Positions 23,336-54,576 are shown, numbered from the stretch's first letter. The stretch is 64,000 nucleotides of DNA from Acetofilamentum sp. (GCA_020720625.1 DYOH01000009.1:7057-71056); one strand, 5' to 3'. A program made the numbers and translations. Notes: generated by a model not told the origin, from the letters alone.

Positions 23336-23863
23336 ATGAGAATTTTCTCACTAATTATTGTTTTATTGATTGGCTCTGATTATGCCTTTTCACAACACTC
23401 GCAAGATGTGCTAAAGGCTGTATTTACAGCACGTTTTATACAATTTAGTCAATGGGAAAACGAGGAAATATTCTTTCAAAAACAAGATAAATTCTATTTC
23501 TATTCTTTATCAGAAAAAAGTATTAATAACGAACTGGAAAAAACGCTTTCCAAAATTGTACTAAAAGGAAAAAAAGTAGAGTTTAAGAAAATTTCTGATA
23601 TAGAAGAAGCATTAGAAGCCAACGTAATTTTTTTAAGCGACGATTGTATAGAATGCATCGCATCTTTAATAAATGCAGTCGAAAACAAACCAATTCTTAT
23701 TATTAGTGATGCAGATAATTTTGCAGAATTTGGCGTACACATCAATATGTACATTACAAACAAAGGTACAATAGGATTTGAATTGAACATGAAAGCTTTT
23801 GAAAAATCGGGAATTATGCCCAATAGCGGTTTAATCAGAATGGGTAAAATTGTAAAACAATGA
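23336..23863 (+). CDS. YfiR/HmsC (DUF4154) family periplasmic protein
   Basis: Signal peptide; LKAVFTARFIQFSQW, PILIISDADNFAEFGVHINM, IGFELNMKAFEKSGI; ATGA overlap with a HAMP sensor kinase. Confidence 0.85.
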   Translation: MRIFSLIIVLLIGSDYAFSQHSQDVLKAVFTARFIQFSQWENEEIFFQKQDKFYFYSLSEKSINNELEKTLSKIVLKGKKVEFKKISDIEEALEANVIFLSDDCIECIASLINAVENKPILIISDADNFAEFGVHINMYITNKGTIGFELNMKAFEKSGIMPNSGLIRMGKIVKQ

Positions 23864-25965
23864 ACATATTTAGCAAACTATCTATAAAGTATAAAATAAT
23901 ATTTGTCAGCCTGATTATCACTATCCCATCGGTTTTAATAAGCAGCATGTTGATACTTTATCTTAATCTGAACACATTCAAAAACGAAATTATTCAAAAA
24001 TCGCTTACCGATGCAAAATTGGTTAATGAACTTATTGCCGCCCCTATGGCTTTCGATTATGCCGATCAGGTATATCAAATTATTGAAAAACTAATTAACC
24101 AGGAAAACATACTTTCTATTTATGTGCTTAATAATAAAAATGAAGTGATAAGCGAATACATAAAACCGGGAACACAAAAATTTTCGCTATCCCTGCGCAA
24201 CGAAAGTGAAATTAACTCCTACCGGTATGCTTTCGACGATATAAATACCTTACACATAGACTATACCATTTCCTTCGAAACCGAAAAATACGGAAATTTA
24301 ATAATTTATTCTGATACCGGAATCACTAAATATTTCTGGCACTCCTTGCAATACATAATCATAATTGGCTTAATCATTGGCCTACTCGCTTATATTGTAA
24401 TCTCCAGACTACAGATTATTATATCGGCACCCATTGTGGAATTAGCCGAAATTAGCCAAAAAATTACCGAAAACCAAGACTATACCATTACTGTTACAAC
24501 CAATTCTAAAGACGAAATCGGATTATTATACAATCAGTACCAAAAAATGTTGTACTCACTGCAAACAAAAGAAAAGGAGAATAGAGAAATAGTAGACAAA
24601 CTTAAGCAAAATCAACAAACCTTAATAAAAACGCAAGCAATTGCACGCATTGGAAGTTGGGAACGAAACTTTTTGACCAACGAAATAGTTTGGTCCGACG
24701 AAGAATACCAAATACTCGAACAATCCAAACATCTAATTCCAACTTTCGACGCAATCCTGGAAAACATTTATCCTGCCGACAAGCAAAATTTTTTAAACAA
24801 TTGGGAGAAAGCACTAAAATTTGGAGCAGAATACAATATCGAATTTCGGTACATGCGAAACTCCGGAATAAAATGGCTTCAGGAAAAAGCCGAAATATAC
24901 TTCGACAAAAACGGAAAAGCCTTGAAAGCACTTGGCTACACTTATGATGTTACCAAACGAAAAGAGCAAGAACTTGAGCTGCTCAAACACCGAAATAACC
25001 TTGAAGAACTAGTACAACACAGAACAAACGAAATTATACAACTCTATTCTGATATTGCCTTCAAAAATGAATTGCTCTATAAAATAAATTCGGAGCTAAA
25101 CAGCGAAAAACTTAAAGTAGTGGAGCAAAGCGAAAAAATAAACAGTGTAAATTCGAGATTACTAAAAAAAGCACAAGAACTTGAAAACACCTTAGGAAAA
25201 TTAAAATCGGCTCAATCGCAATTAGTGCAACAAGAAAAAATGGCTTCGCTCGGTACCTTAACCGCCGGTATTGCACACGAAATAAACAATCCAATTAATT
25301 TTATATCATCAAATATGATGGGTCTCGAAACATTACTATTTGAATTAAAAGAACAATTTGATAACTTGGCTGCTTTACAACCAGAAAATGGAAACATCAT
25401 AAAAGAGATAAATAGCAATATAAACCTGTTAATCAATAATATAAAGATTGGAATTAACCGAACTGTTGAAATTATTAAGAGTTTAAGAACATTCTCCAGA
25501 GATAGTAAAGAAAACTACTCAAATGCAAATATAAACGATAATTTGGACTCGACATTGCTGCTGCTTAAAAATCAGTACAAAGACAAAATAGAAATAATTA
25601 AAGAATATGGCCATATTTCTCCGGTATTTTGCTCCATCGGACAAATAAATCAAGTGTTTATGAATTTGATTTTAAATGCCATTCAGGCAATTACTGATGC
25701 CGGAGTTATCAAAATAAAAACCACCGAAGAAACCAATTTCTTAAAAATTACAATCGAAGACAGCGGAAAAGGTATACCGGAGGATATCAAAAACAAAATC
25801 TTTGAACCATTCTTTACAACCAAAGAAATTGGAAAAGGAACAGGCCTTGGCTTATCTATTAGCTACAACATTATAAAAAATCACAAAGGTGAAATAAAAG
25901 TAGAGTCAACTATTGGAAAAGGAACAAGTTTTTTTGTATTTTTACCACTAAATGAAAAAGCATAA
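23860..25965 (+). CDS. Membrane sensor histidine kinase (periplasmic sensor-HAMP-PAS-HisKA-HATPase)
   Basis: Two TM helices, HAMP ([14 protein letters not shown]), PAS (IGSWE...WSDEEYQI), H-box [33 protein letters not shown]. Confidence 0.92.
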
Positions 25966-27101
25966 TGATTAATTCGTCGGGAAGAATATTAGAACCAATA
26001 CTTTACATTGATGATGAAGAGCAAAACCTGACAGGTTTTAAATTTACATTTTATAAAGATTTTAAAATATTTACCGCAATCAACCAAGACGAAACTTGGA
26101 AAATTCTCGACGAACAAACCATTAAAGTTGTTATCTCTGACCAAAGAATGCCCCAAATTAGTGGAATAGAACTTCTCCAAAAAATTAACCAGAAGTATCC
26201 TTCCATTATTCTTATTCTTATGACCGGATACACTGATTTACAAGCAATAATAGACGCAATTAATAAAGTTGGAATTTTTAAATACATTGCCAAACCTTGG
26301 GAAAAAGAAGACGTAAAGCTTATTTTAAACAGCGCCATTAAAACATATAACCTAAGTTTCGAAAACGAAAACCTGATTCACGATCTAAAAATAGCTAAAG
26401 AGAAAGCCGAAGAATCCGACAAACTTAAAACTGCTTTTTTAAAAAATATTTCCCACGAAATAAGAACACCACTAAATGGAATGCTTGGTTTCTTAAATCT
26501 GATGCTTGAGCAAACAAAGGGAATTCCGAAATTCGAAAACTATGAGCTGTACATAAGAAACGGTGCCAACGAACTTTTGGATATTATTCAGAATATTGTA
26601 GAAATGGCCGAAATTCAAACAGAAAAAACCAAAACCCTTGTTGAAACATTTGAGTTAAATGCCCTTATTAATGCCATAAAACAGGAGTTCAAATCGAATG
26701 ATTTGTACTTGGATAACCCCAATGTACAGTTTAAGTGCAGTACTCCCGATATTCAGAATACAATTAATTCTGATAAAACCAAAATCAAGGAAATTTACAG
26801 ACATCTCATTCACAATGCACTCAAATTTACATCACAAGGTATTGTTGATTTTGGATACGAAATAAATAACAGCAAGCTAGAGATTTTTGTTAAGGATACA
26901 GGAATAGGAATTAAGCAAGAAGATTTGCCGCACATTTTCAACAGATTTTGGAAAGGCTACTTCGAAGACAATCTTTTCCGTGGTTTAGGAATTGGCCTTA
27001 GCATTACCAAATCGTATGTCGATGATTTACATGGTGAAATTTATGTAATCTCAACGCCCAATCAAAGTACAGAATTCAGAGTTATTATTCCCTTAAGCTG
27101 A
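25965..27101 (+). CDS. Hybrid receiver-histidine kinase (REC-HisKA-HATPase)
   Basis: YIDDE...SDQRMP receiver with conserved T and K; SHEIRTPLNG H-box, HNALKFT, DTGIGI, GLGIGLSI. Confidence 0.9.
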   Translation: MINSSGRILEPILYIDDEEQNLTGFKFTFYKDFKIFTAINQDETWKILDEQTIKVVISDQRMPQISGIELLQKINQKYPSIILILMTGYTDLQAIIDAINKVGIFKYIAKPWEKEDVKLILNSAIKTYNLSFENENLIHDLKIAKEKAEESDKLKTAFLKNISHEIRTPLNGMLGFLNLMLEQTKGIPKFENYELYIRNGANELLDIIQNIVEMAEIQTEKTKTLVETFELNALINAIKQEFKSNDLYLDNPNVQFKCSTPDIQNTINSDKTKIKEIYRHLIHNALKFTSQGIVDFGYEINNSKLEIFVKDTGIGIKQEDLPHIFNRFWKGYFEDNLFRGLGIGLSITKSYVDDLHGEIYVISTPNQSTEFRVIIPLS

Positions 27102-43196: not shown

Positions 43197-43733
43197 ATGC
43201 CTTCGAAAATAACATCAAAACTAATAGCAGAAATTCACGATAATCACGTAATTATTGCTTATCAGGGTATATTTGATAATTCGGTGCTTACAATATTAGC
43301 TCAAAATATTGAGAATAATGTGGATACTGATGAGAGACTAAAAAAGAAACTGTTCAAAATTTTTTTAGAAATGGCTCAGAATGTATCGCTATATTCCGAA
43401 GAAAGAAAAATGGTAGGAACTTCGGATATGGGCGAAGGCATATTTATTATCAAAGAATATGACGACCATTTTACCATAGCAACAGGAAATTTGTCGCCAA
43501 CGGCATACGCAGAAATGGTAATTGAGCACATAGATAAAATAAATGCAATGAACCGGGAACAATTGCGGGAGTATAAAAGGGAGAGAAGAGCTTTGCCTCA
43601 CGGGGCAAAAGGTGGAGCCAATATTGGGCTCATACAAATTGCACTTACCTCTGAAAACAAGATTAATTGCAGAATAGGCGAAAATCATGGGCAAAATGTT
43701 TTTCTGGCTTTAGCGACCCGAATAAATAAATAA
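43197..43733 (+). CDS. SiaB-family (DUF6272) GHKL-type Ser/Thr protein kinase
   Basis: AYQGIF, KKLFKIFLEMAQNV, IATGN, IDKINAMNREQLREY and GGANIGLIQIA match the SiaB pattern; upstream of PP2C phosphatases. Confidence 0.82.
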   Translation: MPSKITSKLIAEIHDNHVIIAYQGIFDNSVLTILAQNIENNVDTDERLKKKLFKIFLEMAQNVSLYSEERKMVGTSDMGEGIFIIKEYDDHFTIATGNLSPTAYAEMVIEHIDKINAMNREQLREYKRERRALPHGAKGGANIGLIQIALTSENKINCRIGENHGQNVFLALATRINK

Positions 43734-43740
43734 ATCTATA

Positions 43741-46700
43741 ATGAATTTCCCTTTCCGACATATTATCATTATTATATTTTCAGGTATATTTTTCAATGCC
43801 TTTGGGCAGGAACATTATTTCAGATTCGAACATTTATCTAACGAGCAGGGGCTTTCGCAAAACTCCATAAGCTCCATTGTTCAAGACAACAAAGGATTTA
43901 TCTGGATTGGCACTTACGATGGATTAAACAGATACGACGGACACAATATAAAGCTATTTAGAAACGACCCTAATCTGCCTTTTTCTATTGCCGATAATTA
44001 TATAAAAACCATTATGGTTGACGAAGAAGGAAAAATTTGGGTAGGCACAAATAGCGAAGGAATTTCTGTATATTTTCCGCAAACAAATAATTTTAGAACT
44101 ATCAGAAAAGATAAATTCAACCCCAATGGATTGAGCAATAACGAGATTAACGCTATTTTCATCGATTCGGATAAACAAATTTGGGTTGGAACCAACGATG
44201 GATTAAACCTTTTGAAAAAAGACCAGGAAGAAATTAGCGCCTACGAGGATAACGAAGAAAGCTTTATTGCACAGCAAAGTGGAATTCTGACAAAAGTATT
44301 TCAAAATTTTTTTCACAATGCTTCCAATCCCAATACTATTGCGGGAAATAAAATATCCGATATCGCACAAGTTGATGATATCTCGCTTGCCATATCAACC
44401 GAAAATGGTATTTCTATTTACAACAAAACCGATGATAAGTTCTCGATTTTTTGGAACAAAAGCACACAAAAAATCTTTATGAACAAAAATAATTATTTCT
44501 ATTTCGCATCCGAAAATAATTTATATTCAGCTTATTTCGATGGATATACATTATCGAAGCCCGAAATTATTATTCCCAACATAAAAGTTAAAGACATATT
44601 AGCCGACAATGAGGGTGTTATTTGGCTGGCAACCTCAGAAGGAATTATCTCGCTCAATGCAGAAAATAAAGCTGTTCGCAAAATATTAAATAATCCCCTA
44701 GATCCTAGCTCATTAACAGTTAACGATATTAACACCTTATTTTTCGACCGAACCCAGGTGCTTTGGGTTGGAACGGAACTGGGCGGCCTAAATAAATGGG
44801 ATCCGGGTTCTACCGGAATTGAACTTTACAGAAAAAACCCATTCAGCACTAATAGCATTTCATCAAACATGATAAGATCCATTTATAAAGATAAACAAAA
44901 TATCCTTTGGATTGGCACTGTTGATGGAGGATTAAACAAATGGGATCTGAATACAAATAAAATTAGCAGATTTTTACACAACCCAAAAGATAAATTCAGC
45001 CTCCCGCACAACCATGTAAGATGTATTTTCGAAGACGATAAAAATAATTTATGGATTGGCACCGACGGCAATGGTGCTTGCATTTTCGACAGAAAAACCG
45101 AAAAATTTATTCCAATAGAAATCGAAGGCCTTGAACCAGAAAACAAGCGAATTTGGCATATAGCTCAAGACCATAAAAAAGCTATTTGGCTGGCAAGTTT
45201 TGGCGGCGGATTAATAGAATACGATCCCATTACCAAAAAGTCTAAAATTTACAGGCGAAAAGCTGAGAAAAGCGGCAGTCTTACTGACAACCGCATTACC
45301 TTTGTATACGAAGATAATAGCAGAATACTTTGGGTAGGAACATTTGGCGGTGGATTGGAACGCTGGGACAGATATACCCAAACTTTTAAACATAATAAAT
45401 ACAGCAGAAAAGACCCTAAAACAATTAGTAACGACCGTATTTACACCATTTTCGAAGACTCGAAAAACACCATTTGGATTTCGACAAAGGCTGGCTTAAA
45501 TAAGTATCTGCCTGAAAAAAACGAATTTATACGTTTCACTGAGGCCAACGGACTTCCCAATAATGTAATCATGGGAATTTTAGAAGACGCACATCGAAAT
45601 CTTTGGCTTAGTACGAATAATGGCATTGCACGTTTCGATCTAAACGACTATTCTGTTGTAAATTACGACATGAATGATGGTTTGCAGAGTAATGAATTTT
45701 TGGTAGGAGCCTACTTTAAGGACCTTAGCGGAAAAATGTATTTCGGCGGAATTAACGGATTAAATGCCTTTTATCCGGAAAAATTACAATCGAACCAGTA
45801 TGTACCCCAAATTGTTATTCTTAATTTAAAAATAAACAATAAAAATGCCGAAACAATAGTAAACTCGCCCCTTTTGCAAAATATTACCTATACAAAAGAC
45901 ATTACTTTAAATTACGAACAAAACGTTTTTTCGATTGAATTTGCCGCCATGCATTTCTCTCAACCTCAAAAAAACAAATACATGTACATGCTTTATCCTT
46001 TTGATAAAGAGTGGATTAATACAGATGCAAACCATAGAACCGCTACATATACCAACATAGAACCCGGAGAATATATTTTTAGGGTAATAGGATCAAACTC
46101 CGATGGCGTTTGGAACGAAGAAGGTGTATCGCTGGTAATTAAGATAAATCCACCGGTTTGGCAAACCTGGTGGTTTAGAACCATCGTAATATTAAGCGTA
46201 TTGCTTGGCATTTTTTTTTGGTACTGGTCGCGTATTAATAGAATTAAAAATCAAAAGAAAAAACTAGAAGAAGAAGTAATTCTGCGCACCAAAGAAATTG
46301 CAGATAAAAATGATGAAATTACCAAGCAATCCAAAGAACTCGAAAAATTATCATGGGTAGCCAGCCAAACACAAAACGCCGTTATTATTATGTCGCCAAC
46401 CGGCGAAATAGAATGGGTAAATGCAGGCTTTAAACGCATGTTTGGTTATAAGCTCGGCGAATGGATTAAGCACAAATCTTCGAATATTATGGGGCCTGAA
46501 ACCAATGATATGGTGAAAGAACAATTTAGATTATGCACTGAAAAATCAAGACCGGTTACTTACGAACTTAAAGTGATGAAAAGAGATGGGTCTATTATGT
46601 TTGTTCAAGCAAATTTAGTACCCATACTAGATACTTCAAACAATGTAATAAAAATAATTGCAGTGGATTCTGATATTACGGATTTAAAAAAAGCTGAATC

Positions 46701-47553
46701 TGAAATTATTGCACAAAAAGAAGAATTAGAAGAACAAAAAGAACAGCTTGAACTGCAAAACAGACAAATTGCACAACAAAACGAAAACATAAAAGGCTCA
46801 ATAAGATATGCACTTACGCTACAAACCAATATATTGCCACTTGAAGAACAAATACAGGATTTTTTTAATACTTTTATTCTATATCAGCCCAAAGACATAG
46901 TTTCCGGAGATTTATACTGGTATCATCATCATAAAGATACAGACGATCATTTTTTAGCTGTAATAGACTGCACCGGCCATGGAGTTCCGGGAGCATTTAT
47001 GTCGCTTATCTCTAATAATCTGCTCAACGAAATTGTTATTCAAGACAAAATTCTTGTGCCTGCCGATATCTTATTTCAAATTGACCGACGATTAACCAAA
47101 TTTTTGAAACAAGACAAGAACGACAATACAGATGGTATGGATATTGCACTAACTAAAATCAAAATAAACCAAAAAATACTTAATGTAACTTTTGCCGGAT
47201 CTAAAAGACCTGCCATTATTTACAGAAAAGTAACAAATAATACAGAAATTATTAAAAGCAGCAGAAAAGCAATTGGCGGATTAATTGGAAAAAATCCGGA
47301 AAGTGAATTTTTAAATATAAATTTTTTGTTAAATCAAGGAGATATATTATTTTTAACCTCTGATGGATTTGCTGACCAAAACGACAAGGACAGAAAAAAA
47401 TTCGGTTCGACAAAGTTGATACAAGTTTTCGAAGAAAACGCTTCTGAATCAATGGAATACCAAAAAGAAGCACTTCTAAAAAAACTAGAAAATCACATGC
47501 AAGGAACAGAACAAAGAGACGACATTACAATAATTGGATTAAAACCCAAATGA
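43741..47553 (+). CDS. Membrane sensor phosphatase: beta-propeller (Reg_prop) repeats-Y_Y_Y-TM-PAS-SpoIIE/PP2C
   Basis: Many D-x-x-G-x-IWIGT repeats, YTNIEPGEYIFRV, PPVWQTWWF, PAS; PP2C motifs PKDIVSGD, DCTGHGVPGAFMS, DGMD, SDG, RDDIT. Confidence 0.92.
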   Translation: MNFPFRHIIIIIFSGIFFNAFGQEHYFRFEHLSNEQGLSQNSISSIVQDNKGFIWIGTYDGLNRYDGHNIKLFRNDPNLPFSIADNYIKTIMVDEEGKIWVGTNSEGISVYFPQTNNFRTIRKDKFNPNGLSNNEINAIFIDSDKQIWVGTNDGLNLLKKDQEEISAYEDNEESFIAQQSGILTKVFQNFFHNASNPNTIAGNKISDIAQVDDISLAISTENGISIYNKTDDKFSIFWNKSTQKIFMNKNNYFYFASENNLYSAYFDGYTLSKPEIIIPNIKVKDILADNEGVIWLATSEGIISLNAENKAVRKILNNPLDPSSLTVNDINTLFFDRTQVLWVGTELGGLNKWDPGSTGIELYRKNPFSTNSISSNMIRSIYKDKQNILWIGTVDGGLNKWDLNTNKISRFLHNPKDKFSLPHNHVRCIFEDDKNNLWIGTDGNGACIFDRKTEKFIPIEIEGLEPENKRIWHIAQDHKKAIWLASFGGGLIEYDPITKKSKIYRRKAEKSGSLTDNRITFVYEDNSRILWVGTFGGGLERWDRYTQTFKHNKYSRKDPKTISNDRIYTIFEDSKNTIWISTKAGLNKYLPEKNEFIRFTEANGLPNNVIMGILEDAHRNLWLSTNNGIARFDLNDYSVVNYDMNDGLQSNEFLVGAYFKDLSGKMYFGGINGLNAFYPEKLQSNQYVPQIVILNLKINNKNAETIVNSPLLQNITYTKDITLNYEQNVFSIEFAAMHFSQPQKNKYMYMLYPFDKEWINTDANHRTATYTNIEPGEYIFRVIGSNSDGVWNEEGVSLVIKINPPVWQTWWFRTIVILSVLLGIFFWYWSRINRIKNQKKKLEEEVILRTKEIADKNDEITKQSKELEKLSWVASQTQNAVIIMSPTGEIEWVNAGFKRMFGYKLGEWIKHKSSNIMGPETNDMVKEQFRLCTEKSRPVTYELKVMKRDGSIMFVQANLVPILDTSNNVIKIIAVDSDITDLKKAESEIIAQKEELEEQKEQLELQNRQIAQQNENIKGSIRYALTLQTNILPLEEQIQDFFNTFILYQPKDIVSGDLYWYHHHKDTDDHFLAVIDCTGHGVPGAFMSLISNNLLNEIVIQDKILVPADILFQIDRRLTKFLKQDKNDNTDGMDIALTKIKINQKILNVTFAGSKRPAIIYRKVTNNTEIIKSSRKAIGGLIGKNPESEFLNINFLLNQGDILFLTSDGFADQNDKDRKKFGSTKLIQVFEENASESMEYQKEALLKKLENHMQGTEQRDDITIIGLKPK

Positions 47554-50369
47554 AAATAAGTTATAGATACATAGCCGTTTTAATAGTATTATTTCTCTTC
47601 AACAGCAAACAAATGCTGGGGCAGGCAATGTCGCAAGATAAAATCAAATCCATTTACATACTTAATTTTGCACGATACGTTGAATGGCCAAATGCTCAAA
47701 ATCAAAAAGAAATTTCTATTGGAATTGTTGGTAATGAAAACATTTTCAACGAATTATTAATCCAAACAAAAAATAATGAAATAAACGGTTTGCCGATAAA
47801 AGTAATCTATTTTAAAAAAATTAAAGGGCTTACAAAGGTAAATGTGCTATACATCGACAATAAATTGAACGACTACGTAGTAGATGTAGTAGAAACCGTG
47901 CAAAAGCAATCTACACTTTTGGTTACAGACAGATACGAAAACCCTGACCATATTATGGTTAACATTTTGCCTTTGGATATTGGCAAAAAGCGCTACGAAC
48001 TAAACAAAGCTAATTTTACCAAAGCCAAACTAAAAGCTACCAACCAATTACTGCTTCACGGAGGCACAAGCGACGATATAAAGCTTATTTATACTGAAAT
48101 AGAAAATGAATTAAAAGAAAAAGAAACTCGCGTACAGGAACAAACCAAAATACTTGACGAAAAAATAAAAGAAAACGATAACCAGAAAAAAGCCATTGCT
48201 GAACAACAAAGAAAAATAGACGAACAAAAAAAGGAACTATCTACTTTACTACTTGAATTAAAAGTTCAGAAGGATGCCTTAGACAAAAATGAGCTTATTT
48301 TGTTAGAGCAACAAAATAATATGGAAGTACAAACCAAAGCGCTCGACGACCAAAACAAGGCCATTCAAGAACAAACATTAAGGCTTGAAGAACAGAAAGA
48401 AAAAGCAAATAAGCAAGAAAAAGCCATTGAAATAAAAACTAAGGAAGTTAGCGAAATTCAGAAAAAAATTGAAGCTCAGAAAAAAATCTTACGACAACAA
48501 GATGCCCTTATTCAAACCCAAAAAGGTATTCTCATCATTATTATAGCTTTTTTAGCCCTCTTGCTGCTTCTCGCATTTTTTATTTGGCGTGGTTATAGAA
48601 TAAAACAAAAAATAAACAAACAACTCGAAGAGAAAAACATTGCCATTAACCAGCAAAAAGAAGAAATTCTTGCGCAAAGTAAGCAGCTTGAGATTATTAA
48701 CCAGGAATTAGAAAAATTATCGATTGTAGCCAGTAAAACAGAAAATGCAGTTACCATTATGGATGCCCAAGGAAATCTGGAGTGGGTAAATGCCGGTTTT
48801 ACAAGACTTTATGGATATACACTGCAATTACTTACTAACGAAAAAGGGCTGAACATTATAAATATTAGTTCGAATCCGAATATTCGCAAGATTATTTATA
48901 ATTGCACTCACAACAAAAAAACCGAATTATACGAATCTCAGAATTATACCAGGCAAGGAGAAACCATTTGGGTACAAACCACCCTTACTCCCATCCTGGA
49001 CGACGATGAAAATGTAGTGAAACTAGTAGCTATTGAAACCGACATAAGACAATTAAAAGAAGCAGAAGAAGCTAACAGGCGATATAGCACACAAATATCC
49101 CGTCAGGCAGAGGAACTTCAGCTAAAAAACGAGCAGCTCGAAAAGCTTTCGATTGTAGCTAGTGAAACAGACAATGCCATTACTATTATGAACGGAATAG
49201 GAAATATTGAATGGATTAATGAAGGATTTACAAGACTGTTTGGATACAATTTGGACGAGTATCTGAGTCAGAAAAAAAATATTGTTTCGGCAGATACACC
49301 CGAAGAAACCAAAATATTGATACATAGCTGCATTAGAGAAAAACAAACGGCTAGTTTTCAGTCGAAGCTTAAAACAAGGCATGGCAAATATTTGTGGGTA
49401 CAAACTACCCTAACCCCATTGATCGACAAAACAGGAGGCGTTTACAAACTTATTGCCATTGACACCGATATCAGCAAATTAAAAGAAGCCGAACAGGAGA
49501 TAAGGCAGCAACACGAAGAAATTTTGCAGCAAAAAGAAACACTATTGCTGCAAAATGAAGAGATTCAGGCGCAAAGAGATAAAGTTGAACAACAAAACAA
49601 ACATATAAGGGGAAGCATAAATTACGCTCTTACTATTCAAAGGGCAATGCTACCATTATTGGATATTACAAATCAATACTTTAAATCCTTTATTATTTAT
49701 CGGCCAAAAGATATTGTCTCGGGCGATTTTTATTGGTTTTTTCATAAAGATGAAACCACGAGAACCTTGGCTGCAGTTGTTGATTGCACTGGCCACGGTG
49801 TTCCGGGGGCTTTTATGAGCATGATAGGTAGCCGCATTTTGAGCGAAATTGTGGCCGAAAGTAAACTTATCCGACCCAGCCAAATTTTAGAAGAATTAAA
49901 CATCAGAATTAAAAAAGCACTTAAGCAATCGCAAACCGAAAATAACGACGGCATGGATGTGTCATTGGTTTGTTTGTCGAAAATTGACGAACATAAAACA
50001 CGGGTGGTATTCTCCGGTGCTAAAAGACCATTATTCTTTTTCCGCAAAAGCGATAGTGAAATGGATATGATTAAAGGTGATCGAAAATCTATTGGTGGCT
50101 CAAGGTTAAAAAGGGTTGAGATTCCATTTACCGACAAAGAATTGTTTTTCGAAAAAGGCGATATGATATATCTTTTTTCTGATGGCATTATTGACCAAAA
50201 CGATTTTGACAGGAAAAAATTTGGTTCCCCCCAATTTATAGAACTTATTAACCAGGTAGCTAAGGAAAGTCTCGAATACCAACAGGAAATTATTACCCAG
50301 GCGCTCGACAAGCACCAAGGAAAAGAAGAGCAGCGCGACGACATTACCGTTTGGGGTATTCAGACTTAA
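47550..50369 (+). CDS. Membrane sensor phosphatase: YfiR-like domain-long coiled coil-TM-PAS-PAS-SpoIIE/PP2C
   Basis: Signal peptide, IKSIYILNFARYVEWP (YfiR), ~150-aa Q/E/K heptad region, TM, two PAS repeats, intact PP2C motifs; ATGA overlap with the upstream gene. Confidence 0.88.
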   Translation: MKISYRYIAVLIVLFLFNSKQMLGQAMSQDKIKSIYILNFARYVEWPNAQNQKEISIGIVGNENIFNELLIQTKNNEINGLPIKVIYFKKIKGLTKVNVLYIDNKLNDYVVDVVETVQKQSTLLVTDRYENPDHIMVNILPLDIGKKRYELNKANFTKAKLKATNQLLLHGGTSDDIKLIYTEIENELKEKETRVQEQTKILDEKIKENDNQKKAIAEQQRKIDEQKKELSTLLLELKVQKDALDKNELILLEQQNNMEVQTKALDDQNKAIQEQTLRLEEQKEKANKQEKAIEIKTKEVSEIQKKIEAQKKILRQQDALIQTQKGILIIIIAFLALLLLLAFFIWRGYRIKQKINKQLEEKNIAINQQKEEILAQSKQLEIINQELEKLSIVASKTENAVTIMDAQGNLEWVNAGFTRLYGYTLQLLTNEKGLNIINISSNPNIRKIIYNCTHNKKTELYESQNYTRQGETIWVQTTLTPILDDDENVVKLVAIETDIRQLKEAEEANRRYSTQISRQAEELQLKNEQLEKLSIVASETDNAITIMNGIGNIEWINEGFTRLFGYNLDEYLSQKKNIVSADTPEETKILIHSCIREKQTASFQSKLKTRHGKYLWVQTTLTPLIDKTGGVYKLIAIDTDISKLKEAEQEIRQQHEEILQQKETLLLQNEEIQAQRDKVEQQNKHIRGSINYALTIQRAMLPLLDITNQYFKSFIIYRPKDIVSGDFYWFFHKDETTRTLAAVVDCTGHGVPGAFMSMIGSRILSEIVAESKLIRPSQILEELNIRIKKALKQSQTENNDGMDVSLVCLSKIDEHKTRVVFSGAKRPLFFFRKSDSEMDMIKGDRKSIGGSRLKRVEIPFTDKELFFEKGDMIYLFSDGIIDQNDFDRKKFGSPQFIELINQVAKESLEYQQEIITQALDKHQGKEEQRDDITVWGIQT

Positions 50370-52356: not shown

Positions 52357-54417
52357 TTATAATTGTACACCTAAAACCAAAATATCATCAATTTGTTTGA
52401 ATTTATCGGCCTGCCATAATTTCAGCTCCTGATTTAGTTTTTGCTTTTGCGTTTCTAAAGGATGAACAGAAATTGAAACTAAAAAATCGCGATAGGCAGA
52501 TTTAAAATATTTTCGGCCTTTTACGCCACCTACCTGATCCTGAAAACCATCTGTTGATAAATAAAGTTTATCTCCTGCCGAAAAAGTTTTTGTAGTAGAA
52601 ACAAATGGCTCTTCGTTTCTCGATATTGCCACTGGCATGCGCTGTGAATCAATAATCTCAATATTTCTACCCGAAATAAGGTAGGCATCGTTGTGAGCAC
52701 CGCTAAATTCTAATTTAAATTCTTTTTTGTAAATTTTAACCAAAGAAATATCCAATCCATCTTTATTATCTGCAATAGATTTTTGCCCAAGTGAACTCTT
52801 TAATTTTGAACGTAATAGATTTAAAATATTGCCTAAATTTTGTTGATGTATGCTATCCATGTTGATTATTTCGTTGAGCAATGAAATACTTAATACACTC
52901 ATAAAAGACCCGGAAACTCCATGCCCTGTTGAGTCTGCAACAGCAAGATATATATATTCCTGATGCTGATAAACCCAGTAAAAATCGCCACTTACAATAT
53001 CGCGCGGAATATTGAGCACAAAAAAATCAGAAAATATAGCTCCAAGTGTATCATCTGAAGGCATAAGCGCCTTTTGAATCCTGCTGGCATAATTTATACT
53101 ATCGGTTATAAAAGTTTGCCTATCCTCTAATATTTTATATTGAATTTCAAGTAAATTATTTATATTCTGCAAATTGTTTGCCTGCACTTCGAGTTCCACA
53201 CTTTGCTCTTTTAATGCTTTATTCTTCTCCTCAATAAGCTGATTTGTTTGTGTTAATTGATTATTTATACGATTCATTTTCTTTCTGTTTCGGTTAAATA
53301 ATACCAAGGCCACAAAGCCTATCAAAATTAATATGACCAAAAAAGCGGAGATAAATGTAATTCGTTTTTTATACAATTCTTCTATCCGTAAATCGCGTTG
53401 CAATAATTCAATTTCCGATTGTTTTTTTAGCTGCTCCTTGCTAAATTCAATACTTGCAATTTGCTTGGAAACTTGCTCACTATAGAGCGAGTCTTTATAA
53501 TTATTCACCAATTGCTCATAAGAATAAGCGCGCTGATAATCTTTTAACGAACTAAAAACTTGTGCCAACTGCTCGCATGAGCGCATGGTTCTTAAATTGG
53601 AACGAACAACACGTGCGACATTTAAACTAATTGTGGCATAGTGTAAAGCACTGTCGAGCATATCTTTTTCTAAATAGAGTATAGAAAGCTGATTGCAATA
53701 ATCGGAGTATAAATCCTTATCTGCTTCAAAATTGCTATATTTTTGCGCAAGCTTATAGTATTCCATGGCCTTGGAGTAAGAATTTTTCTCCAACTCAACA
53801 TCGCCCAAATACTTATAGGTAACTCCAATTTTTTCAAAATCACTTGCTTGCTCTCTTAATTCCAGTGTTTTTTCCAAAAAAAACCGGGCACTATCAAATT
53901 TATTTAAAAGCAAATAAGATCGCCCAAGGTTTTGATAGGCATATCCCAATAAGTCTTCATTTTTTAATTTTGATGCAATAGGTAAAACCATTTGCAAGTA
54001 TTGCACTGATAATTCAGGTTTCTCCTGATAGAGATATAGGTTGGCAAAATTATTATATGCATATCCCAATTGATCTTCGTAGCCAAAATCCATTGCTAAA
54101 TCTACCGAATTTTGATAATTTTCTAAGGCTTGGGTATAAACACCCATATTGCGGTACAAAACACCTATAAAGCTATATGATTTGGTTAACTCGTAAGAAA
54201 AATTGTTTTTTGTTGAAATATCAATGGCTTCCTGGATATATTTTAATGCCTCACGTGGTTCAGAATTGCGCAAGCTCCATCCTATTTTATTGAGTGTTTT
54301 TGCTTTTGTTTCACCCTCTTGCTTTGGAAGCAAGTTGATGAGAGAATCTGTTTCTTGTGCCCTTAATGACAAAACACAAAAAATAAACACAACAAAATAA
54401 AGCAAGTATTTCTGCAT
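52357..54417 (-). CDS. Membrane sensor phosphatase: TPR repeats-TM-coiled coil-SpoIIE/PP2C
   Basis: Signal peptide from MQKYLL, TPR-like helical repeats, TM, PRDIVSGD, DSTGHGVSG, DGLD, TDG, IDDI. Confidence 0.88.
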   Translation of the reverse strand: MQKYLLYFVVFIFCVLSLRAQETDSLINLLPKQEGETKAKTLNKIGWSLRNSEPREALKYIQEAIDISTKNNFSYELTKSYSFIGVLYRNMGVYTQALENYQNSVDLAMDFGYEDQLGYAYNNFANLYLYQEKPELSVQYLQMVLPIASKLKNEDLLGYAYQNLGRSYLLLNKFDSARFFLEKTLELREQASDFEKIGVTYKYLGDVELEKNSYSKAMEYYKLAQKYSNFEADKDLYSDYCNQLSILYLEKDMLDSALHYATISLNVARVVRSNLRTMRSCEQLAQVFSSLKDYQRAYSYEQLVNNYKDSLYSEQVSKQIASIEFSKEQLKKQSEIELLQRDLRIEELYKKRITFISAFLVILILIGFVALVLFNRNRKKMNRINNQLTQTNQLIEEKNKALKEQSVELEVQANNLQNINNLLEIQYKILEDRQTFITDSINYASRIQKALMPSDDTLGAIFSDFFVLNIPRDIVSGDFYWVYQHQEYIYLAVADSTGHGVSGSFMSVLSISLLNEIINMDSIHQQNLGNILNLLRSKLKSSLGQKSIADNKDGLDISLVKIYKKEFKLEFSGAHNDAYLISGRNIEIIDSQRMPVAISRNEEPFVSTTKTFSAGDKLYLSTDGFQDQVGGVKGRKYFKSAYRDFLVSISVHPLETQKQKLNQELKLWQADKFKQIDDILVLGVQL

Positions 54418-54576
54418 ATATGTAATCAGATTAAATCCGAAAATTCTTATTCGCTTAACTTCAATGGAAGATTGAATCAAATATAATATAAATTTGCAAA
54501 TTAACTAAATGTATAGGCAAAGAAAAAATAGAATCCATTAATTTCACAAAAAATTAATTTTGCCGGAAGAATTAAC

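Follow-up and report, generated by a model that had tools for sequence, protein, structure and literature searches.

The 64,000-nucleotide window analyzed here, the whole stretch DYOH01000009.1:7057-71056 of Acetofilamentum sp. (GCA_020720625.1), encodes a 939-amino-acid protein (P0001; 47550-50369, plus strand) in which a YfiR-like head, a long heptad stalk, a transmembrane (TM) helix and a cytoplasmic phosphatase are joined from head to output in a single chain. The architecture is real and apparently represents an undescribed form of YfiR-type trans-envelope signalling. No description of a stalked YfiR fusion was found in the titles and abstract openings of the literature, with subscription journals and supplements lying outside the scope. 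Judged from sequence comparisons, the stalk is likely a length-selected spacer, and it is present in two phyla. Our preferred reading, which we rate somewhat below an even chance, is that P0001 is an inner-membrane sensor phosphatase whose stalk brings the head to a protein of the outer membrane and whose coil relays binding to the PP2C domain. The parts of the chain, in window coordinates, are as follows.

47550..50369, plus strand: the whole chain, in the order signal peptide, YfiR-like head, stalk, TM helix, signalling helix (S-helix), PAS, PAS, PP2C
47550..47621, plus strand: cleavable signal peptide predicted from sequence, residues 1-24, with a Gly/Gln (G/Q) cleavage site and no Cys
47640..48053, plus strand: YfiR/HmsC-like (DUF4154) head, residues 31-168, 0 Cys, from Pfam and Foldseek
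48060..48065, plus strand: Gly-Gly hinge at the head/stalk junction, residues 171-172, with G in 67-70% of 61 aligned relatives
48066..48524, plus strand: periplasmic heptad stalk, residues 173-325, position a being L/I and position d mostly Gln, predicted as a continuous helix of ~23 nm
48528..48584, plus strand: single TM helix, residues 327-345, with a positively charged segment after it
48591..48743, plus strand: cytoplasmic S-helix with IxxQ heptads like those of the stalk; in the structure model the helix runs to the model's end
48744..49049, plus strand: PAS domain 1, residues 399-500, from Pfam
49167..49460, plus strand: PAS domain 2, residues 540-637, from Pfam
49758..50357, plus strand: SpoIIE/PP2C phosphatase, SiaA-like, residues 737-936 from Pfam, with the typical PP2C Asp motifs present

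The head matches PF13689 over residues 31-168 (E 8e-20, 71.8 bits against a curated cut-off of 24.9). The best Foldseek matches of its model are crystal structures of Pseudomonas aeruginosa YfiR (E 3.4e-6, target TM-score 0.70-0.75), the same entries that are retrieved with a sequence profile of the heads. Compared with 4yn7, 4xjy and 5eb1, the head model reaches target TM-scores of 0.67-0.75 and has the YfiR fold, which bears out the YfiR-like domain that the original prediction had placed after a signal peptide. The signal-peptide site follows the N-terminal-Gln rule of Bacteroidota. Of 252 fused heads, 27 have at least two cysteines. The most conserved head positions (M136, N138, E150 and N152) all lie in the C-terminal half. 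The C-terminal region of P. aeruginosa YfiR contacts YfiB (PMC4655355), and the clustering of conserved positions would fit a retained binding surface.

The stalk was originally described as some 151 uninterrupted, proline-free heptad codons, rich in Q, E and K, ahead of a single TM helix. This description held: residues 175-325 (48072-48524) comprise 151 codons with zero Pro and zero Gly, and K (27), E (24) and Q (21) make up 48% of them. Hydrophobic residues recur with a period of 7.0, and the periodic power is equalled by 1 in 10,000 shuffles. L, I, V or M fills one heptad position in 18 of 21 heptads, and Gln predominates three residues further along; across the family the core has L/I at 81% of a positions and Gln at 49% of d positions. 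In an AlphaFold2 monomer model of residues 25-378 (61-row alignment, mean pLDDT 91.5), an alpha/beta head is followed by an unbroken helix that runs from residue 174 via the stalk and TM into the cytoplasmic helix, extended and free of fold-back. Coiled coils rise by 0.15 nm per residue; the 153-residue Pro/Gly-free stalk is predicted to be about 23 nm long, and head and stalk together would reach about 26 nm. The heptads and the kinase outputs of relatives, such outputs being dimers, suggest that the stalk may be a parallel dimer with two-chain packing. A similar reach is known from Porphyromonas gingivalis, where the 17-nm span of PorM and the 8-nm thickness of the PorKN ring add up to roughly 25 nm (PMC9170169). 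The likeness between stalk and periplasm width that had been pointed out at the outset stands to this extent, but sensing of that width is not favoured over a spacer.

Net charge is more positive after the TM than before it in 202 of 230 relatives. Among the complete N-termini, 127 of 137 have an [AGS]Q cleavage-like site and 1 of 137 has a lipobox. Based on the charge asymmetry and the signal-peptide features, stalk and head are therefore periplasmic, as first proposed, and a cytoplasmic topology of the stalk is ruled out.

A profile built from 16 fused heads, including the first stalk residues, was used to collect relatives in genomes and protein libraries. The library relatives are the best 150 of 20,972 representatives, and short-stalk fusions may be under-sampled. 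The search gave 285 distinct head-bearing sequences, 251 of which extend beyond the head. Stalk length, taken as the distance between the Gly-Gly hinge and the TM (154 residues in P0001), was determined in the 230 with a detectable TM; the 21 dropped were mostly fragments, together with two tandem-head proteins and two long proteins with a TM below threshold. The outputs of the 230 are PP2C (113), histidine kinase (99) and other or truncated (18).

The stalks concentrate near 150 residues: 202 of the 230 fall between 140 and 163, with a median of 152 and a range of 77-253, and no head sits directly on the TM. The 140-163 band is kept when heads are filtered at 50% identity (115/133) and at 35% (41/47). 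Lengths are 0 or 1 modulo 7 in 190 of the 230 stalks, and one third of the pairs with 50-60% head identity differ by at least one heptad. Median stalk identity in distant length-matched pairs is 18%. The stalk's coefficient of variation is 0.15, versus 0.39 for the cytoplasmic heptad linker in the same 39 PP2C proteins, and 0.13 versus 0.36 in 57 kinases, the linker being the shorter of the two segments and a few of its values possibly including hidden extra domains. The five stalks from Pseudomonadota measure 155-161, in a sample centred on a locus that matches P0142 in its cytoplasmic part alone. Conserved length with divergent sequence is a described mark of spacer coils (PMC5082667), and the stalk family shows both. 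Clades were identified on a FastTree tree of 168 heads with a midpoint root, which was used solely for that and not for the order of events. In one kinase clade (P0138, P0142, P0144 and P0151, with names that include Psychromonas, Alteromonadales and Lentisphaeraceae) the stalks are 190-253 residues long (28-38 nm), a length that a fixed periplasm width leaves unexplained. P0006 and P0007 have three and two tandem YfiR-like heads, respectively, ahead of the start of a stalk, and both appear truncated.

The original prediction went further and proposed a ruler of envelope width, to be supported by a tight distribution of stalk lengths. The concentration near 150 residues agrees with this, but the range of 77-253 is not that of a tight ruler. 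The five stalked paralogues of this genome measure 100, 120, 143, 154 and 162 residues, a spread of 62 residues (about 9 nm). In a set of 47 paralogues from 17 genomes, stalk length is not explained by the genome (F 1.47, permutation p 0.17), and the nearest orthologues lie one whole heptad apart (154 and 147). A ruler length specific to each genome was rejected on this basis, and the claim of a precise ruler or mechanical gauge was not upheld. Tandem pairs of stalked YfiR-PP2C genes with unequal stalks were observed at three loci (L083, 154/162; L090, 147/155; L096, 147/151). In the paralogue at G000:C53:30936-33335 (L009), the 143-residue stalk is broken by a Gly-containing acidic segment and the head is degenerate.

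To which outer-membrane protein the head might bind was approached through gene neighbourhoods (stretches of 3-20 kb around stalked genes, 55 loci in all) and co-occurrence. An outer-membrane tether of the YfiB type, as initially suggested, found no support: the best of 20 OmpA-like matches in this genome scores 95.4 bits against a YfiB cut-off of 128, no OmpA-domain gene occurs in the 55 loci, and YfiB was rejected as the partner. A TonB-dependent receptor is present in 12 of the 55 loci, in 11 cases with an N-terminal helix. These receptors have in common a motif close to D-[IL]-[FY]-x-[LM]-S-[LI]-E-E-L-M-x-x-x-V (LSLEELM-type), which in a structure model forms a short helix followed by a strand. 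In a 151-genome order sample, a YfiR-like gene occurs in 36 of 37 genomes with a receptor match covering the helix versus 28 of 114 others, and in 29 of 30 receptor-bearing genomes once the 7 seed genomes are removed; this is a hand tally from the best 150 of 377 receptor matches, over genomes that are not phylogenetically independent. Receptors in the same sample often lie ~2 kb from soluble YfiR-like genes.

The sole motif-bearing receptor in this genome, 1 of 7 near-complete TonB receptors inspected, is G000:C11:40411-42549 (L122:10412-12550, minus strand), which was itself among the seeds of the motif. Both genomes that bear a P0001 orthologue have receptor matches covering the N-terminal helix. 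The best NCBIfam models for the P0001 head among YfiR-like families and for the N-terminal part of the C11 receptor are TOL_0243 (NF053591) and TOL_0244 (NF053590), respectively, both matched below cut-off. The C11 receptor carries LSIEDLM, and a soluble YfiR-like gene lies ~6 kb downstream of it with no sensor beside that gene. Elsewhere in this genome, one soluble YfiR-like gene lies between an OmpA-domain gene and a chemoreceptor (G000:C42:55849-59703) and another has a PorE/CHU_0125-like gene on one side and a hybrid kinase on the other (G000:C78:46342-51753). The OmpA-domain and PorE/CHU_0125-like neighbours are candidates for other outer-envelope partners.

In the mechanism that we propose, the stalk would act as a fixed spacer that keeps the YfiR-like head in the part of the periplasm next to the outer membrane, where the head may bind the periplasmic face of an outer-membrane protein, as gene neighbourhood and co-occurrence suggest. 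The likeliest ligand would be the LSLEELM-type N-terminal helix of the TonB-dependent-receptor class, supplied here in trans by the C11 receptor. Binding or release might shift the loosely packed, Gln-cored coil, and the shift could pass from the TM to the S-helix, the two PAS domains and the PP2C domain. Contrary to the original claim, the coupling of TM helix to phosphatase is not direct, because two PAS domains intervene between them. The PP2C domain may in turn oppose the SiaB kinase on SiaC-type phosphoproteins. One tethered chain would in this way replace the shuttling of YfiR between two membranes. A bolder form, which we regard as possible though on the doubtful side, is an undescribed class of single-chain trans-envelope receptors: the coil-borne YfiR head would grip the TonB-receptor helix, a surface ligand or a change in spacing would drive the phosphatase or kinase and feed SiaB/SiaC, and paralogues of unequal length would sample different depths of the periplasm.

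Several results weigh against the proposed spacer and its receptor partner. Stalks outside the 140-163 band number 28 of 230, and two of them (100 and 120) are in this genome. No such receptor lies beside P0001 or in the 8 other examined loci of its clade (L083, L090, L093, L097, L116, L117, L182 and L183), and none in two Pseudomonadota loci. In 14 of the 35 stalk-bearing genomes of the order, the helix-bearing receptor was not found, these being incomplete assemblies of which 6 were rescanned with every candidate scored. The co-occurrence counts also mix kinship with signalling richness. The receptor partner is probably not universal. A complex prediction that paired the head (residues 25-184) with the C11 receptor's N-terminal helix and plug, two proteins not known to be cognate, scored 0.22 against a mark of 0.32, with its controls unfolded, and counts neither for nor against binding.

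The strongest competitor keeps the spacer but gives the head another target: a small ligand, peptidoglycan, an OmpA- or PorE-like protein, or a soluble YfiR-like protein that is kept from an inner-membrane kinase. This agrees with the hand-tallied presence of the receptor class in 17 of 21 genomes with GG-type heads versus 4 of 14 with other heads only, with the orthologue in the family relative G547, whose immediate downstream neighbours encode a soluble YfiR-like protein and a HAMP-PAS kinase, and with the soluble YfiR-like genes beside the OmpA and PorE-like proteins of this genome. YfiR also dimerises in crystals and in solution (PMC4655355). Against it, a soluble YfiR-like neighbour was found in 1 of the 55 loci and an OmpA gene in 0, and a diffusible ligand would need no conserved 23-nm reach; we consider such a target unlikely, yet well worth keeping in view. 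A gauge of envelope width, in which the outer membrane or peptidoglycan holds the head in place and a change in spacing stretches or compresses the stalk and so switches the phosphatase, has precedents in the Rcs system, where 3-4 nm of added spacing abolishes signalling (PMC5736177) and a response to periplasmic thickness has been proposed (PMC12528386). Head and stalk are about one periplasm wide, the main band of about +/-1.6 nm is on the scale of the Rcs tolerance, and unequal paralogues could report different thresholds. Set against these points are the lack of tuning per genome described above, with stalks of 100-162 in one cell, the whole-heptad step between nearest orthologues, the kinase clade with stalks up to 190-253, and the lack of a YfiB above cut-off or of an OmpA gene beside the loci, and we judge a gauge to be rather improbable.

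Two further explanations were weighed. The stalk could be a passive expansion of IxxQ signalling-helix heptads that has no distance function and whose length is inherited, given that the cytoplasmic linkers are built of the same IxxQ heptads and that indels are frequent and of whole heptads, as is required of any continuous coil. Yet the length mode is stable despite those indels, across distant clades and two phyla, and the spread is far below that of the cytoplasmic linker. Divergence between P0001 and the same-genus orthologue is also well under the saturated synonymous level at non-synonymous sites (pN 0.22, pS 0.77), dN/dS being not computable for most regions because synonymous sites are saturated. 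We give passive expansion a small probability. Smaller still is that of a stalk folded back as an antiparallel bundle with the head near the inner membrane. The model is of a monomer, and with a polar residue at d the core is weak and could repack, but family stalks contain 3 Pro in 34,599 residues, the P0001 stalk has one uninterrupted heptad register without Gly or Pro, and the modelled helix is continuous with pLDDT above 90.

The closest known system is YfiBNR of P. aeruginosa and E. coli (HmsCDE of Yersinia), with which P0001 shares the predicted head fold and the principle that a YfiR-type domain connects a partner in the outer membrane with a signalling enzyme in the inner one. P0001 works like YfiBNR yet does not belong to it. 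YfiR is soluble and shuttles, whereas the head here is fused via a 150-residue stalk to a membrane enzyme; YfiR carries conserved cysteine pairs (PMC4655355), whereas the P0001 head has no Cys; the outer-membrane lipoprotein YfiB is absent above cut-off from this genome; and the YfiN-type target (PAS/CHASE8-HAMP-GGDEF) is replaced by a PAS-PAS-PP2C output that lacks a periplasmic PAS/CHASE8 docking domain. In distant YfiNR systems the outputs vary and YfiB is often missing (PMC3375315). The TOL_0243/TOL_0244 pair of NCBIfam is an unfused combination of YfiR-like protein and TonB receptor, with the YfiR-like part as a separate 150-position family, whereas here it is fused. TOL_0244 is reported to be 40.3% similar to OmpS of Alcanivorax dieselolei, which is described as sensing alkanes and switching on the expression of chemotaxis genes (PMC6304351, PMC9788540); the parts of these two papers drawn on here make no mention of a stalked fusion or of a YfiR link with TOL_0244/OmpS.

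On the output side, P0001 resembles SiaABC(D) of P. aeruginosa, in which SiaA dephosphorylates and SiaB phosphorylates SiaC. Shared features are the SiaA-like PP2C domain, a SiaB-family kinase in the operon and SiaC-like genes elsewhere in the genome, whereas the input of SiaA is unrelated and the P0001 operon has no SiaC or diguanylate cyclase gene. NCBIfam SiaA (NF038263) matches P0001 with E 4.6e-54 and 184 bits against a full-length cut-off of 700, the PP2C part alone being matched. RcsF-IgaA of the Rcs system shares reach-dependent communication across the periplasm, but uses a flexible outer-membrane lipoprotein linker in place of a rigid coil anchored in the inner membrane. FecA-FecR is TonB-dependent cell-surface signalling with an anti-sigma factor and shares the path from outer-membrane receptor to inner-membrane protein; here the path would be a coil with a Ser/Thr-type phosphatase or histidine kinase output.

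Few systems are known that carry information from the outer membrane to the cytoplasm in Gram-negative cells (Rcs, FecA-type and YfiBNR). The unfused YfiR-like/TonB pair and YfiNR systems with other outputs were known already, and the present analysis adds the PP2C/SiaB branch, a within-genome test against the ruler and a candidate receptor helix. The one-chain design has a reach adjustable by heptads, which makes it possible to test directly how signalling depends on distance and how a signal travels along a 23-nm coil. If the proposed mechanism is true, it gives a role to the TonB-dependent-receptor class that tracks YfiR-like genes and supplies the large set of SiaB/SiaC phospho-switches in these Bacteroidota with an input. 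Even as a mere spacer to a known kind of partner, the architecture would still be one for which no description was found.

The stalked gene is the last of an apparent operon that runs from the SiaB kinase through a propeller-PAS-PP2C gene to P0001. The neighbouring genes in the window are listed below.

43197..43733, plus strand: the gene that opens the operon, encoding a protein kinase of the SiaB family (NF038262 at 122.5 bits, cut-off 85) and kept in G547
43741..47553, plus strand: beta-propeller (Reg_prop/Y_Y_Y)-PAS-PP2C protein of 1270 amino acids, overlapping the P0001 start by 4 nucleotides
23336..27101, plus strand: soluble YfiR-like gene, CHASE8-HAMP-PAS histidine kinase (CHASE8 match weak) and REC-kinase, 20 kb from P0001

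The propeller gene is found in both orthologous loci (73% and 66% identity), and siaB in that of G547 too. The P0001 orthologue in G547 has three genes immediately downstream (L183:4158-7941), for a soluble YfiR-like protein, a HAMP-PAS kinase and a REC-kinase. This trio is contiguous with the orthologue there and 20 kb away here; a rearrangement has therefore joined or split the operon. A scan for promoters and terminators was at chance level (23 versus 28.5, and 6 versus 6.2). Across the 55 loci around stalked genes, 12 contain SiaB or SiaC genes.

Judged by its gene content, the organism would be Bacteroidales-like. This genome encodes nine YfiR-like domains, four of them soluble and five fused to a stalk, TM and PP2C, along with 8 SiaB-like and 11 SiaC-like open reading frames (ORFs). 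A PP2C DCTGHG-like motif is present in 41 ORFs of the genome (G000), and one 535-amino-acid ORF (C80:5646-7250) matches both the SiaB and the SiaC profiles. A third nearby membrane sensor PP2C, with a TPR-repeat input domain, is encoded in the window at 52357-54480 on the minus strand.

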